From a virus (taxonomy: Duplodnaviria; Caudoviricetes): 64,000 nt of DNA. The translations under genes and the position numbers were made by a program. The stretch lies in the IMG/VR virus record IMGVR_UViG_3300042866_001263, one strand, 5' to 3'. The notes beneath the pieces were generated by a model. The model saw only the letters and a program-made list of their open reading frames with translations. It had not been told where the DNA came from and did no database searches. Below are positions 2,872 to 7,563 of the stretch, piece after piece; the first letter of the stretch is position 1, and the number at the start of each line of letters is the position of its first letter.

Positions 2872-3615
2872 ATGTTAAGTAAAGAAACCATTTTAGCAAA
2901 TGCTACGCAGTTTGCTACTGGACAAACTGATTATCAAAATGATAACTTTGTAATGAATTCCCATGTTACAAAGTATCGCCAAGTTCGTCAAGCTCTCTTA
3001 GAAATTGAAAACAGATATCATGGTATCAAAAAAATTAAACTTGATGTTCGCAGGGACGAGATAAAAATAAAGGCACTTGAAAGAGATTTAGAAAAGTGTG
3101 AGGACGAATTAGAAATAGAACTAATCAGATTGGATATAGAAGAACTACAATCTGATAATGATATTCGTAAAAGGAAACTACATAGACAAGAACAAGAAAT
3201 AGATGTTTTTGTCAAAAGAGTTCAAGAAGAAGTAGAAAGCGAAGAAGATATCCAAAGATATTTTGATCAAGACCCAGAGGAAGAAAGAAAGTATTGGATT
3301 GCTCGAATGGGCAAACAGGCTGCTATGGATATTCTTTCGTTTGGAAGAATTAGTACAGGAAATTTGGATTCGATTGCTATGCTTCCAGAAGAAGAGCAAT
3401 TACAAATTCTTTCCATTGGTTTCCAATATTCAAATCTTCTTGGCGGTCAGTTAGCAAAAATCGAAGGTAAGACAAGAGAATATACACAACAACTTTTATC
3501 TGATGCCAACAATCTTCATCTACCAACGTTTGAAGGTATTGAGGATAACATGGAATTGAAGATGATTAATTCACTCAAGGAAATTGTGGAGCAAAAGAAA
3601 CTGAACGGAAATTGA
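2872..3615 (+). CDS. Coiled-coil hypothetical protein of the fibre module
   Basis: GGAG at 2862-2865 precedes ATG 2872; long charged heptad region. Confidence 0.75.
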   Translation: MLSKETILANATQFATGQTDYQNDNFVMNSHVTKYRQVRQALLEIENRYHGIKKIKLDVRRDEIKIKALERDLEKCEDELEIELIRLDIEELQSDNDIRKRKLHRQEQEIDVFVKRVQEEVESEEDIQRYFDQDPEEERKYWIARMGKQAAMDILSFGRISTGNLDSIAMLPEEEQLQILSIGFQYSNLLGGQLAKIEGKTREYTQQLLSDANNLHLPTFEGIEDNMELKMINSLKEIVEQKKLNGN

Positions 3616-3617
3616 AA

Positions 3618-4370
3618 ATGAATGAGAATTTTTGGGATTATAGTGCGATTGAAAAGAAGATTGAATTAAATAACGTCCATAGTATTTTTTCAATACCATT
3701 ATTTGAAGGCACTATCATGGTTTCAAATCAAGATGAAATCATGAGCGATTTGAAAACAAAATACAATTCTTTAGGTGAAGGAGACGAACTGCTATCATCA
3801 ACTGGTTCTACACTCACTCCACTAAAGGCAGAGGAACAAAAAAATGTTTCAGTAAGAAATAGAATTTCCTACTATAGTGAAGACACTTTACACGAACAAG
3901 AACTTTACAAAGAGCTGACTGTTGCTGTTGAAAAAGTAGCGCAGGATATGTTTGATCTTTATGAATACGATTGTATTACACCACACGTAGTTACGATGTG
4001 GGGAAATGTGTTGGGTCAGCAGGGATACATCCATGCTCATTCCCATAGCAATTCTATGTTCTCTGGTGTTTGGTATCCAGAAGATCCCCCAGAAACTGAA
4101 GAGGGTTCTTTATCAAATTATATAAAATTTATTGATCCGACTAGAATTAAATTTTTCTACATGCCACAGATTAAGAAGAAAAATTCTCTTAACTCTGGTG
4201 AGATATTCATTAAACCAAGGAAAGGAATGTGTTTAATATTTCCATCGTGGTTAGAGCATGATACTATTGCAAATGAAAATCCTTTCGTTCAACGTTATAG
4301 TATTTCATTCAATATTTTTCCCAAAGGAATTTTGGGATATCCAAATTCACTAAATCGCCTTACGTTATGA
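3618..4370 (+). CDS. 2OG-Fe(II) oxygenase (TIGR02466-like)
   Basis: HSH...SGVWY...FPSWLEH...RYSISFN motifs. Confidence 0.85.
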   Translation: MNENFWDYSAIEKKIELNNVHSIFSIPLFEGTIMVSNQDEIMSDLKTKYNSLGEGDELLSSTGSTLTPLKAEEQKNVSVRNRISYYSEDTLHEQELYKELTVAVEKVAQDMFDLYEYDCITPHVVTMWGNVLGQQGYIHAHSHSNSMFSGVWYPEDPPETEEGSLSNYIKFIDPTRIKFFYMPQIKKKNSLNSGEIFIKPRKGMCLIFPSWLEHDTIANENPFVQRYSISFNIFPKGILGYPNSLNRLTL

Positions 4371-5017
4371 GCACTCTTGAAATATTCCCAGAAGCTATTG
4401 GGAAGTATTCTTTTGATTATGAAAGTAGAATTAAAATTAAAGATCTTTGTTTTGATATAATCAAAAGAAATTCTTTTTCTAAGAATAAAGATAGTAATAA
4501 TTTATACCACTATTGTAATACCAACAAAGAAAATTTATTAAATCTGGAGCAGTTTAAATGGTTTGAAGAAAAGATCTCAACATTTGCTGCCGACTATATC
4601 GAAAATATTTTAGGATATGAGTTAAAAGATGGTGTTGTAATTACAGACTGCTGGATGAATTTATGCCAAAATAATGGTGATCAGTTTTTACACAATCATG
4701 GCAACTCATTTATTTCTGGAACATACTATGTCAATTTTAATCCAGATGTTCATGGCAAATTAAAATTTCAGAATAAAAATATGATGTCTGGAATGAACTC
4801 TGCTCCTTATCTAGAATTAACAATTAAAAAGAATACAAAATACAACTCTGGAGGAGCAATAATGAATTATAATGAAGGCGATGTATTGCTATGGCAATCA
4901 CATTTAATTCATGGATATAGTGGTAATAATTCAGACAATCGCATTAGCATCTCATTTAATATTATGCCCAAACATTTTTATAATAATTCATATTCATTTA
5001 AGGTGGTGAGAGAATGA
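4367..5017 (+). CDS. 2OG-Fe(II) oxygenase (TIGR02466-like)
   Basis: HNH...SGTYY...LIHG...RISISFN motifs; ATGA overlap with the previous gene. Confidence 0.85.
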   Translation: MSTLEIFPEAIGKYSFDYESRIKIKDLCFDIIKRNSFSKNKDSNNLYHYCNTNKENLLNLEQFKWFEEKISTFAADYIENILGYELKDGVVITDCWMNLCQNNGDQFLHNHGNSFISGTYYVNFNPDVHGKLKFQNKNMMSGMNSAPYLELTIKKNTKYNSGGAIMNYNEGDVLLWQSHLIHGYSGNNSDNRISISFNIMPKHFYNNSYSFKVVRE

Positions 5018-5682
5018 TATTAATAGAAAGTGATTATCTCGAAAGAGTTTGTCAAATTAATCCAGAGGCAAAGATCGAAGACGTTGTATACGATGGGGTT
5101 AAGTTTAAGTGTATCAGAAACTTTCTTAAAAATCCAGAAGAGTACATCGAGTTAATACAACAATTTCCAGCAACTAGAGATCACACATATTCTCCTGGTT
5201 TCAGACAAGACATCCCACCATGGGTAGCTAAATTTATTACCCTGTATATTCAAGAACATGTGGGTCAATGGAAACCTGCTAGGGTTTCTTGTAACATTTA
5301 CAGTGGTAATATGCTAATGAAAGAGCATTCTAATTTACCACATTCAGATCCATTCTATGGTATTTGGAATTTATGGTTAAACAAAAAATGTTTAGGTGGA
5401 ACTGCTTTTTGGGCACATAAAAATAAGTTGCATGTTAGTGAGTTGTCAGAAGAAGAATATAATTACTTATTTGATAAACCATTAAATGGTTCTGGTTACG
5501 AAACTTGGAAAAACTTTAAAGGAGATGAGGACTGGAAGATGACATGTATTGCTCCCATGGAGTATAACACACTTCTCTTCTATAATGGTGGATTTTTTCA
5601 TTCTCCATGGATCCAAGAAAGCTGGTATTTAGATGAGTATAGATACAGTATGGTTGGCATGGGAGATTTTGAAAATGTTTAG
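5014..5682 (+). CDS. 2OG-Fe(II) oxygenase (DUF6445-like)
   Basis: PHSD...GGTAFW...YNTLLFYNG..FHSP...RY motifs; ATGA overlap. Confidence 0.75.
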   Translation: MILIESDYLERVCQINPEAKIEDVVYDGVKFKCIRNFLKNPEEYIELIQQFPATRDHTYSPGFRQDIPPWVAKFITLYIQEHVGQWKPARVSCNIYSGNMLMKEHSNLPHSDPFYGIWNLWLNKKCLGGTAFWAHKNKLHVSELSEEEYNYLFDKPLNGSGYETWKNFKGDEDWKMTCIAPMEYNTLLFYNGGFFHSPWIQESWYLDEYRYSMVGMGDFENV

Positions 5683-7366
5683 TTTACCAATTAATCCAAA
5701 GATCGATGAGAACTTCGCTAATAATATTCTCATTCCTTTTCTAAAAAAATACAAGCAATACATCTTTGACTTATATTTCACTTGTCGTATGCCTCCCTTT
5801 ATGCAGGATGCCATGGGTGATGTGTTCGAAGATGACTTGAGACAGACAACCTTTAATGCATTATACATTCAAAAGCAAACTGGTATTCCTCTGTCTGCTA
5901 CGTTCAACAATCCTTATGTAAGACCAACCCAAGAAAATTTGGATTTGTTTATCAATAACTTCAAATACATCTATGAAGCTGGTGTTAGAACAGTAACTCT
6001 TCCACACACTTCATGGATGCTTACTGGGCAAATTCAAAAGGAGATGCCAGAACTTTATATCAAGAATACTATTCTACATGAAGTCACAAAGGCAAATGAT
6101 ATTGTCTCGCTTGCTAAAGCAGGTTTTAATTACATCAACCTCGATAGAGATTTGATGAGAGATCAAGACCAACTCAGGCGTCTCAAGGAAGCAAAAGAGT
6201 ATTGTGCTTCTATCGGAAAACCAGTTAAGTTCTCTATGCTTGCTAATGAAGGATGCTGGGGTGGATGCCCTATCATGCCAGAGCATTACCACTATAATAA
6301 CACAAGAGAGAACCACGAACCACCATACTTTGGTAACATCATCAGTCGTGTATCTTGTGCTAAGTGGGAACAGCAAGATAGTTCTGCTGTCCTGAAATCA
6401 TCTAATCTACCACCCTGGAAAAAAGATTGGGAAGAGATGTTTGATCTAGGCATCGATGTTTTCAAACTACATGGCAGAGAAAGTGTCATGCGTCTTAGGG
6501 AAAGTATGGATATCATTGAACGTTGGGCGAAAGATGAAGAACTGCTGTTCCCAGAACTCAATACCTATATCCAAGATAAGAGTTTGAATGAAAGACCTAT
6601 TGATATCTGGCGTGAGAAGATCAAAACTTGTAAGTTTGATTGCTGGGACTGTAACTACTGCGAGGCAGTAATTGACGCTCACCACAAGAAGCAAGATAGA
6701 GTAGTTCATCCATTAGTTACTCTAACACTTGACGCTATTGATAAATCTGCTACTGGAGACACTAAGTTCGATCCACAAGGATTTAATATCGAAGGTTTAT
6801 CTTCTGATAGAGTAAGACATTTTCTCAATCACCTATGTTCTGATCCAAAGAATACTTATTTGGAAATTGGATGTTATACGGGCAGCACATACTTTGCTGC
6901 TATTATGGGAAACAATATTGTTTCATATGCTGTCGATAACTTTGCAGCACCCATATCACCAGCTAGAGATGACATCGAATGGAAAGGATCTAAGGATCCC
7001 AAGGCAGAACTTGCAAGAAATAATGTCTTGTTCGGCAGTTTAAAATCTGCTATAATTGATGTGGATGCGAGACAATTAACTCAGTCTCACTTCTCAAAAA
7101 AACCCAACATCATATTCTATGATGGAGAGCACGATGAACAGCAAATAGATTGTCTGAATAATCTATTACCCAATCTACCAGATACATTTATTTTGGTTTT
7201 GGATGATGCTAATTTTGATGGAGTTATCCGTAATGGGGAAAAATTTATAGGTATAAATAACCTACAGGTTCTATTTGAAAGGCAAATCATAACGCCTCAG
7301 ATAGAAGATGCCGCCAGTTGGTGGAATGGATTAGCAGTTTATGTTTTAACTAAAAAGGAGATTTGA
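5675..7366 (+). CDS. U32-family (Fe-S hydroxylase-like) domain fused to a class I SAM methyltransferase
   Basis: N-terminal half: NEGCWGGCP, SCAKW, FKLHGRE (KIEGR-like) and CKFDCWDCNYC. C-terminal half: YLEIGCYTGST, YAVDNF, IFYDGEH and VLDD (Methyltransf_24-like). GGGAG RBS before ATG 5675. Confidence 0.65.
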   Translation: MFSLPINPKIDENFANNILIPFLKKYKQYIFDLYFTCRMPPFMQDAMGDVFEDDLRQTTFNALYIQKQTGIPLSATFNNPYVRPTQENLDLFINNFKYIYEAGVRTVTLPHTSWMLTGQIQKEMPELYIKNTILHEVTKANDIVSLAKAGFNYINLDRDLMRDQDQLRRLKEAKEYCASIGKPVKFSMLANEGCWGGCPIMPEHYHYNNTRENHEPPYFGNIISRVSCAKWEQQDSSAVLKSSNLPPWKKDWEEMFDLGIDVFKLHGRESVMRLRESMDIIERWAKDEELLFPELNTYIQDKSLNERPIDIWREKIKTCKFDCWDCNYCEAVIDAHHKKQDRVVHPLVTLTLDAIDKSATGDTKFDPQGFNIEGLSSDRVRHFLNHLCSDPKNTYLEIGCYTGSTYFAAIMGNNIVSYAVDNFAAPISPARDDIEWKGSKDPKAELARNNVLFGSLKSAIIDVDARQLTQSHFSKKPNIIFYDGEHDEQQIDCLNNLLPNLPDTFILVLDDANFDGVIRNGEKFIGINNLQVLFERQIITPQIEDAASWWNGLAVYVLTKKEI

Positions 7367-7371
7367 TTACT

Positions 7372-7563
7372 ATGGCAACCGATACCGCAACACTGAAAGA
7401 AAATTTCACTACTCAACTTACTAACGTTGACGCTCAGATTGTCAAACTAGAAGAAGAACTAGCAAAAGCAAAGGAATACAAACTCAAGCTTCAAGGTGGT
7501 CTAGAAACTCTAGAACTTCTCACTCCAACTGAAGAAGCACCTGCCGAAGCAGCAGCAGAATAA
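7372..7563 (+). CDS. Small coiled-coil hypothetical protein
   Basis: AAGGAG RBS at 7355-7360; heptad pattern. Confidence 0.75.
   Translation: MATDTATLKENFTTQLTNVDAQIVKLEEELAKAKEYKLKLQGGLETLELLTPTEEAPAEAAAE

Follow-up and report, generated by a model that had tools for sequence, protein, structure and literature searches.

Can a phage install a methoxy group on an aromatic ring with a single polypeptide? This question is raised by a gene at positions 5675-7366 (plus strand) of a 64,000-nucleotide (nt) stretch of viral DNA (Duplodnaviria; Caudoviricetes; IMG/VR record IMGVR_UViG_3300042866_001263), referred to below as the window. According to the original prediction, the gene product joins a U32-family iron-sulfur (Fe-S) domain to an S-adenosylmethionine (SAM) methyltransferase, and the two together could make such a group. 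We found that the gene is real and conserved far beyond chance, and the assignment of its product to a U32-like domain fused to an O-methyltransferase is very probably correct. That the protein is a two-domain tailoring enzyme, in which U32-type hydroxylation is followed by O-methylation by the fused domain, has in our judgment about an even chance of being right. A search of the literature found no paper on the fusion protein or on any phage U32-like enzyme. We place the protein as a new variant, large and carried by phages, of an enzyme type already known, not as a novel kind of system.

Conservation of the fusion gene

Positions 5675-7363 translate into 563 residues free of stop codons. A longer frame opens at an upstream ATG at 5633, but ATG 5675 is the likely start, because the N-termini of homologues fall just ahead of the sequence FSLPINPK and because a GGGAG lies 9 nt upstream. 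The motifs that had suggested the two domains all lie at their predicted positions once their nucleotide coordinates are re-derived (Table 1). The protein matches PHROG 1458, a family of unknown function (E-value (E) 3.5e-226), its N-terminal half also matches PHROG 36869, and 1,642 database proteins match it. With tblastn the gene was found in 126 phage records, 123 of them near full-length copies from Synechococcus or Prochlorococcus myoviruses, every one annotated "hypothetical protein"; in the remaining three, from Ralstonia jumbo phages, the N-terminal domain stands alone. A profile search of 1.84 billion cluster representatives returned 339 clusters at 50% identity, many of which are stand-alone proteins of 330-450 amino acids. 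Among the cyanophage homologues, mean column identity is 77% in the N-terminal domain versus 42% in the C-terminal domain, where the alignment takes in five more divergent sequences.

Around the fusion gene lie T4-like neck and tail genes, and DNA of the window (52-100% of sampled words) is contained in 19 lake-water or freshwater metagenome runs from 18 studies; six of these runs may be the source sample. The source is therefore taken to be an uncultured freshwater cyanomyovirus. The phage that carries the window is thus a widespread virus of fresh waters and not of the sea. One metatranscriptome holds contigs 90-95% alike over 6807-7544 only, the 3' part of a relative's gene; this match may be DNA carry-over and is not counted as proof of transcription.

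Other copies of the gene are annotated in part or not at all. For S-CAM4, S-RIM12, and P-RSM1, GenBank places the start of the homologue 38-46 codons past the onset of protein similarity, leaving the deposited proteins without the conserved N-terminus, which overlaps the upstream gene. The copy in Prochlorococcus phage P-SSM3 (L017:4968-6691) is unannotated and falls into two frames that correspond to query residues 1-424 and 476-560. This looks like a frameshift or deletion within the methyltransferase domain and would be a natural near-knockout.

Table 1. Coordinates of the fusion gene, its domains and motifs, and related features. Positions refer to the window unless a locus is named.
Feature	Residues	Positions	Strand	Basis or remark
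Whole gene, 563-aa U32-like/O-methyltransferase fusion		5675..7366	+	open frame; stop codon included
N-terminal domain, (beta-alpha)8 barrel, divergent U32 superfamily (predicted)	1-345	5675..6709	+	AlphaFold2 model, 5d88, ESM Atlas, hhalign
NEGCWGGCP, C194 and C198 (Cx3C then Pro)	191-199	6245..6271	+	invariant in 71 relatives
SCAKW, invariant C228		6356..6358	+	invariant column in 71-relative alignment
KLHGRE (K264, G267, R268), counterpart of U32 K-I-E-G-R	264-269	6464..6481	+	at least 90% conserved
CKFDCWDCNYC, Cx3Cx2Cx2C box (C319, C323, C326, C329)	319-329	6629..6661	+	invariant in 71 relatives
C-terminal domain, class I SAM-dependent O-methyltransferase, COMT/CCoAOMT/TylF type (predicted)	346-563	6710..7363	+	PF13578, fold
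EIGCYTGST, SAM-binding motif I (E397, G399, G403)	397-405	6863..6889	+	cyanophage-invariant; at least 90% conserved
YD483GEH...LD510D511AN513 acidic set		7118..7213	+	invariant in cyanophages or at least 90% conserved
YDGEH	482-486	7118..7132	+	
LDDAN	509-513	7199..7213	+	
Partner gene, 247 aa, PHROG 1409 (unknown function)		2872..3615	+	conserved upstream in relatives; 567 homologues
Three translationally coupled 2-oxoglutarate (2OG)-Fe(II) oxygenase-type genes		3612-4370, 4367-5017, 5014-5682	+	overlapping stop/start codons
Small acidic open reading frame (ORF), 66 aa, PHROG 580		7363..7563	+	E 4.2e-17; overlaps fusion gene stop codon
Late GenBank starts		L013:5001-5139 (S-CAM4), L014:5001-5115 (S-RIM12), L015:5001-5127 (P-RSM1)		
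RP12 ORF140, ORF139, ORF138		L002:5335-8056		PHROG 1409/U32-like pair without methyltransferase
VirX1-type flavin-dependent halogenase		L018:3425-4966		between PHROG 1409 gene and fusion gene, flanked by 2OG oxygenases
P0209 and Trp_halogenase		L008:8001-9587		halogenase gene cut by contig end

A U32-like barrel fused to an O-methyltransferase

By its modeled fold, the N-terminal half is related to U32 proteins, as had been predicted. AlphaFold2, run on an alignment of 71 diverse relatives (24% mean column identity), gave a confident (beta-alpha)8 barrel (pLDDT 95.4, pTM 0.92). In an exhaustive structural comparison with 48,161 Protein Data Bank (PDB) representatives, the best match to this model was the U32 protein Mk0906 of Methanopyrus kandleri (5d88; Z 16.5, root-mean-square deviation 3.1 Å), in an alignment that spans 224 of 247 residues (model residues 1-274); generic TIM barrels came next, at Z 12.6 or below. 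Foldseek likewise gave 5d88 as the best TM-score for the domain (0.69, normalized on the target). Mk0906 was the sole U32 structure recovered by our PDB searches. It differs from the phage domain in having only 10% sequence identity to it and no sequence-search link, and the structural match stops before the C-terminal cysteine box. Beyond its own family, the closest ESM Atlas folds were a Radical_SAM-containing cluster (TM 0.75, PF04055 in 91% of members) and four clusters with PF01136, the U32 peptidase family, in 99-100% of members (TM 0.74, 0.63, 0.63, and 0.61); one U32 cluster has Radical_SAM in 25% of its members. In the nearest clusters by language-model features, PF01136 occurs in 20% of members. 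The original prediction had named a non-U32 fold, such as radical SAM, as an outcome that would count against it, and structure prediction returned no such fold. A first fold search with the full-length protein gave mostly methyltransferases and PRMT5 at TM about 0.2 and did not address the barrel.

Profile comparison points in the same direction. Aligned by hhalign to the barrels of the four Escherichia coli U32 proteins (TrhP, RlhA, UbiU, and UbiV; a four-sequence target profile), the 71-sequence alignment reached a probability of 67% and E 5e-5, in the correct barrel register, with phage residues 54-171 on TrhP 43-153. The corresponding segments, conserved in both families, include FPE(L/M)-x3-(K/H)-x-(T/S), whose FPE(L/M) pairs with FPEM on the E. 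coli side, and LDRDL against LSREL; an extended alignment of lower confidence adds FKLHGRE against TrhP LKIEGRT. A poorer alignment of relatives gave a probability of 4% and E 0.01, and the 71-relative alignment was uninformative against a single UbiU or UbiV sequence. By fold and remote homology, the predicted domain thus falls within the U32 superfamily but outside the curated family: the claim of U32 membership stands on the former two grounds and fails on curated sequence models, which are considered below with the other points against our proposal.

The cysteines set this branch apart. The only invariant columns in the alignment of 71 relatives are seven cysteines, C194, C198, C228, C319, C323, C326, and C329, in the pattern Cx3C-x29-C plus Cx3Cx2Cx2C, which bears out the predicted conserved set; an eighth, C177, is invariant among the cyanophage proteins only. 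The first motif, NEGCWGGCP, directly follows the barrel strand at 185-189. In place of the canonical U32 arrangement, CX6C-X15-CX3/4C (bioRxiv 10.1101/587956), only N-x-G-C-x3-C resembles a U32 element, the second pair, and in the extended hhalign, within a low-confidence region, the phage N-E-G-C-x3-C falls on TrhP N-Q-G-T-C193-x3-C197. The K-I-E-G-R motif that follows a late barrel strand in U32 proteins has its counterpart in KLHGRE, which hhalign pairs with TrhP KIEGR. The Cx3Cx2Cx2C box is absent from all four E. coli barrels and is a candidate second Fe-S or metal site. A distinct subfamily had been proposed on the view that the CxxxC spacing differs from the Cx6C of TrhP and RlhA; the subfamily is distinct, but its Cx3C is not simply a shortened Cx6C. 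As judged from the alignments, it is marked by loss of the Cx6C pair, by C228, and by the extra invariant box. The simplest reading would split the seven cysteines 4+3 over two sites, an allotment to clusters that we infer.

The C-terminal domain was predicted to be a SAM methyltransferase, and both its relatives and its fold identify it more closely as a class I enzyme of the O-methyltransferase type. Of 28 relatives, 24 match PF13578 (Methyltransf_24; best E 2.3e-10), and TylF and Methyltransf_3 have a single match each; the window's own domain scores 19.5 bits against the PF13578 cut-off of 26.3. The modeled fold is that of class I Rossmann methyltransferases, SAM motif I is present, and strand 2 is followed by an acidic residue (D421) that is invariant among cyanophage homologues, as are E397, G399, and G403. 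The conserved set D483/D510-D511-x-N513 would correspond in position to the metal and substrate site of cation-dependent O-methyltransferases. Fold matches to this part of the full-length model are almost all O-methyltransferases, led by MeT1 (Z 16.4), catechol O-methyltransferase (16.1), TrmR (15.6), and SpnH and MycF (about 15); the range from 16.4 to 14.7 takes in bacterial and mammalian catechol O-methyltransferases, TomG, and Rv0187. Since the subfamilies are tied in Z score, with TrmR level with the top match, the type of acceptor cannot be read from the fold. A PDB sequence and profile search with the domain profile found no solved relative. The domain thus resembles the COMT/CCoAOMT/TylF/MeT1 group in its Rossmann fold, motif I (E-x-G-x3-G), Asp after strand 2, and D...DD(x)N set, and differs from it in falling below the PF13578 cut-off and in having no solved relative by sequence. 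One fusion relative (P0124:333-546) is an exception: its C-terminal domain has no Methyltransf_24 match and aligns with the final 210 positions of Pfam DUF7483 (E 1.3e-51), a family that may thus be methyltransferase-like and belong to this group.

Proposed chemistry and its alternatives

We infer Fe-S binding, hydroxylation, and methoxy formation from this combination of domains. Presumably expressed from the fiber and neck late gene block, the protein would most likely hold a [4Fe-4S] cluster at the mouth of the barrel through C194, C198, C228, and a fourth ligand, with the Cx3Cx2Cx2C box most likely forming a second cluster or metal site. By analogy with characterized U32 proteins, domain 1 (residues 1-345) would hydroxylate an sp2 carbon of an aromatic or heteroaromatic ring independently of O2, and probably in a prephenate-dependent manner. 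Domain 2 (residues 346-563), as a cation-dependent catechol-type SAM O-methyltransferase, would then cap the new hydroxyl, giving a net conversion of C-H to C-OCH3 within one polypeptide. The protein encoded by an upstream PHROG 1409 gene may work with the fusion protein and is at least co-inherited with it. Possible substrates include host tRNA or rRNA, a fiber protein residue, a glycan, or a small aromatic metabolite. The fiber genes, halogenases, oxygenases, and SPASM enzymes found near the gene and its relatives make us lean toward a protein or small aromatic substrate over RNA.

Both steps have parallels in known pathways. In the Bacillus subtilis yrrM-yrrN-yrrO genes, a COMT-like methyltransferase, TrmR (YrrM), is encoded with two U32 proteins, TrhP2 (YrrN) and TrhP1 (YrrO), that together lead to mo5U34 in tRNA, and TrhO, the other ho5U hydroxylase, is fused to TrmR in some eukaryotes (PMC6599085). 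The phage protein resembles this ho5U34-to-mo5U34 system in pairing a U32 barrel with a catechol-type O-methyltransferase, in the tie between the TrmR fold and the best matches of its C-terminal domain, and in the alignment of its barrel to TrhP, where the K..GR and N-x-G-C-x3-C motifs correspond. It differs in being a single polypeptide where Bacillus has separate genes in one operon; in lacking the PF01136 match, the PF16325 C-terminal domain, and the Cx6C pair of TrhP while having the extra C228 and Cx3Cx2Cx2C box; and in carrying a methyltransferase of the Methyltransf_24 and not the Methyltransf_3 family. Nor is there any sign of an RNA substrate for the phage protein, and no tRNA gene was found in the window. 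Isoelectric points did not discriminate between RNA and other substrates; TrhP itself is acidic.

The second parallel is with UbiU and UbiV, stand-alone U32 barrels that, like the phage barrel, lack an RNA-type C-terminal domain. In both proteins four cysteines ligate a [4Fe-4S] cluster, with a Cx3C among them in UbiV, and such motifs are conserved in most U32 subfamilies (10.1101/587956). Together they hydroxylate the ubiquinone ring without O2, using prephenate as the oxygen donor (PMC10990095) and needing the accessory protein UbiT, before UbiG carries out O-methylation. The phage gene also travels with a non-catalytic-looking partner, although the PHROG 1409 protein has no detectable relation to SCP2/UbiT. 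The cysteine pattern differs from that of UbiU-UbiV, the regions examined showed no second U32 paralogue, and the phage methyltransferase, in contrast to UbiG, is fused and of another subfamily.

Several observations weigh against our proposal. The fusion protein has no Pfam match to PF01136 at E up to 0.1, and just one of the 71 relatives does, at noise level (E 0.033). A regular-expression search of the fusion protein for the PROSITE-type U32 signature, which holds the Cx6C pair and which we take to be E-x-F-x2-G-[SA]-[LIVM]-C-x4-G-x-C-x-[LIVM]-S, found no match; this signature is present in TrhP, RlhA, and UbiU but absent from UbiV, an accepted member. PDB sequence and profile searches with the whole protein and with N-terminal domain profiles found no chain. 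The same searches with a U32 profile and with TrhP itself found none either, and a homologue search with the four-paralogue E. coli alignment returned close TrhP orthologues only. Because phmmer with TrhP, a bona fide U32 protein, fails to retrieve 5d88, such failures of sequence models are weak evidence against kinship in this family. The hhalign probability is moderate, and the cysteine region is aligned with low confidence; with the Cx6C pair missing, cluster ligation may differ from that of known U32 proteins. The U32 analogy itself rests on genetics, as none of these proteins has shown direct hydroxylase activity in vitro (PMC10990095). On the side of the methyltransferase, the D...DD set is also like that of the sugar O-methyltransferases TylF, MycF, SpnH, and MeT1, and the group that is methylated may be something other than what domain 1 produces. 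Finally, most stand-alone relatives have no adjoining methyltransferase, and the radical SAM/SPASM genes beside some of them would fit other Fe-S chemistry too.

In an alternative that we consider rather unlikely, the N-terminal domain is an Fe-S enzyme of other redox or radical-linked chemistry, such as reduction, dehydration, or electron delivery, and the methyltransferase uses a pre-existing hydroxyl. It would account for the two Radical_SAM+SPASM genes (L011) or the single Radical_SAM gene that flank stand-alone relatives and for the Radical_SAM content of the Atlas clusters described above, and the Cx3Cx2Cx2C box suggests an added electron-transfer cluster without counterpart in UbiU/UbiV or TrhP. 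Against it, all U32 proteins with an assigned role are tied to hydroxylation (10.1101/587956, PMC10990095, PMC6599085), and a route of hydroxylation and then methylation would predict just such a fusion to a catechol-type O-methyltransferase. A further alternative, which we consider very improbable, makes the domain a non-canonical radical SAM-type enzyme whose C-terminal Cx3Cx2C holds the SAM-cleaving cluster. ThiC is an enzyme in which a C-terminal motif carries this cluster, and C319-x3-C323-x2-C326 has the radical SAM spacing and follows the TIM barrel, in addition to the adjoining radical SAM genes. The motif, however, lies at the C-terminus and not after strand 1, lacks an aromatic residue before the third cysteine, and continues with x2-C, so that it equally resembles a ferredoxin-like CxxCxxC with an outlying cysteine on the N-terminal side. 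The 25 families listed for the 71 relatives do not include PF04055, and no radical SAM enzyme is among the best 50 matches of either PDB fold search, although this does not exclude the family.

Alternatively, the protein could be directed at glycans on the virion or host surface, combining a sugar O-methyltransferase (TylF/MycF/MeT1-like) with a carbohydrate-binding or -processing barrel in which the cysteines form structural metal sites. We find this quite improbable, even though the top fold match of the C-terminal domain is the mannose 3-O-methyltransferase MeT1, with SpnH and MycF not far below, one relative matches TylF, and the conserved D...DD set fits what we take, from NovP and MycF, to be the TylF-type arrangement. 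Many glycoside hydrolase TIM barrels also match the N-terminal model at Z about 11, and a relative's neighborhood (L012) contains Maf/MptE-like and acetyltransferase genes. The U32 match nevertheless stands 4 Z units above every glycosidase barrel, a set of seven invariant cysteines with Pro after one of them is a common feature of Fe-S sites but not of glycosidases, and the tied Z scores of the methyltransferases cannot separate sugar from catechol acceptors. Least credible of all is a true peptidase (a "U32 collagenase") that processes collagen-like fiber proteins, with an unrelated role for the methyltransferase. The U32 family was founded on a reported collagenase activity, the fusion gene sits among fiber genes, and in the Ralstonia phage RP12 a gene with collagen repeats (ORF143) precedes the U32-like gene by about 2 kb. 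The family, though, has no defined protease catalytic residues, invariance here is confined to cysteines set in cluster-like motifs, and characterized U32 proteins are Fe-S proteins tied to hydroxylation and not to proteolysis (10.1101/587956, PMC10990095).

The fusion would offer a soluble single-chain model for U32 chemistry. The U32 proteins are emerging as O2-independent hydroxylases with prephenate as oxygen donor, and only three activities have been assigned (tRNA ho5U, rRNA ho5C, and ubiquinone), none of them reconstituted in vitro. With its 339 clusters and 123 cyanomyovirus records, the gene defines a large, phage-borne, and very divergent U32 branch with a different, predicted seven-cysteine metal signature, and in its cyanophage members the O-methyltransferase is part of the same chain and hints at the chemistry. 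Labeled "hypothetical," the gene is also abundant and conserved in cyanophages of both the sea and fresh waters, where it is located in the fiber/neck block, and knowing what it makes would uncover either an RNA modification that the phage imposes on its host or a new way of chemically decorating virions or metabolites.

Partner genes and genomic neighborhood

The fusion gene is the fifth of six close-packed genes (2872-3615, 3612-4370, 4367-5017, 5014-5682, 5675-7366, and 7363-7563) whose stops and starts overlap or abut. The first of these is the PHROG 1409 gene, which lies immediately 5' of the fusion gene in P-HM2, S-CAM4, S-RIM12, P-RSM1, and P-SSM3. In RP12, too, a PHROG 1409 homologue, ORF140 (hhalign probability 98.4% against the partner; PHROG 1409 E 9e-69), lies immediately 5' of the N-domain-only ORF139. 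That the pair recurs in phages so remote from one another speaks for a functional partnership. When the N-terminal domain was modeled in complex with the PHROG 1409 protein, the score was 0.00, but the model was run without controls and speaks neither for nor against binding. The partner has no Pfam family above threshold and no ESM Atlas lead, and no similarity was detectable between it and the N-terminal extension of P0132 or the 291-residue neighbor in L011. RP12 is a 280-kb jumbo phage in which the gene after the pair encodes a DUF401/CitMHS-like membrane transporter; its ORF143 is fiber-like.

Between the partner and the fusion gene, the window has three 2OG-type genes, two matching PF13759 (E 5.9e-20 and 4.1e-18) and one DUF6445 (E 3.6e-9). 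Genes of this type do not occupy that position in other cyanophages, and we do not regard them as obligate partners, as they do not adjoin the fusion gene in P-HM2, S-CAM4, S-RIM12, or P-RSM1. Since the fusion is kept across the sampled cyanomyoviruses and the adjacent 2OG genes are not, the persistent partner of the methyltransferase is the U32-like domain. The DUF6445 protein (5014-5682; PHROG 1644, "minor coat protein") has an H-x-D...H pattern (PHSD, FFHSPW) and lies among 2OG genes; it is probably a 2OG-oxygenase-type enzyme, which would make the PHROG and GenBank label wrong.

In a metagenome contig whose fusion protein is 81% identical (L018), the same slot, again in a close-packed string of genes, contains a flavin-dependent halogenase (Trp_halogenase E 4e-97) besides three PF13759 genes and one DUF6445 gene; in the PDB this halogenase best matches 6qgm, VirX1 of cyanophage Syn10 (E 1.7e-97). 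A 63-residue ORF follows the fusion gene there. On a 140-kb phage-like contig (L008), the stand-alone U32-like gene P0209 (29% identity) is followed directly by a Trp_halogenase gene, with Gly_rich_2/DUF4376 fiber-like genes upstream; one structural gene of this contig was tested and had no match among isolated phages. Another stand-alone relative, P0135, lies between two Radical_SAM+SPASM genes (L011:1640-5808) and adjoins an unassigned gene of 291 residues, and on the contig with the U32-like P0128 a Radical_SAM gene is immediately upstream. Relatives of the fusion gene share operons with VirX1-type halogenases and 2OG oxygenases.

One broad interpretation of these neighborhoods, which we consider unlikely, is that the fusion and PHROG 1409 form the fixed core of a phage aromatic-tailoring system whose slot recruits 2OG oxygenases and VirX1-type halogenases, and whose more distant relatives would recruit radical SAM/SPASM enzymes. 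Its target, just as speculatively, would be receptor-binding fiber proteins or a small aromatic molecule that is produced in infection, to which hydroxyl, methoxy, and halogen groups would be added. If true, this would be a virion or metabolite chemistry not described for phages and a pointer to the natural substrate of VirX1. Syn9 and Sf-CH11 carry oxygenase/halogenase islands at the same fiber-to-neck position, with no fusion gene annotated in the stretches fetched, and the adjacency may therefore partly reflect a shared hot spot and not a shared pathway.

A few minor features complete the locus. For the N-terminal domain, Pfam and NCBIfam gave nothing but sub-threshold matches to the Lys-5,6-aminomutase TIM barrel, which we set aside as generic barrel similarity. 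In S-CAM4 and P-HM2, the homologues of the small PHROG 580 ORF adjoin neck genes, not the fusion gene. The T4-type late-promoter word TATAAATA is not enriched in the window, with 4 matches versus 2.8 expected. One exact copy, at 7252-7259, falls inside the fusion gene at its 3' end, with the 66-residue ORF and the gp13 neck gene about 100 nt further downstream.

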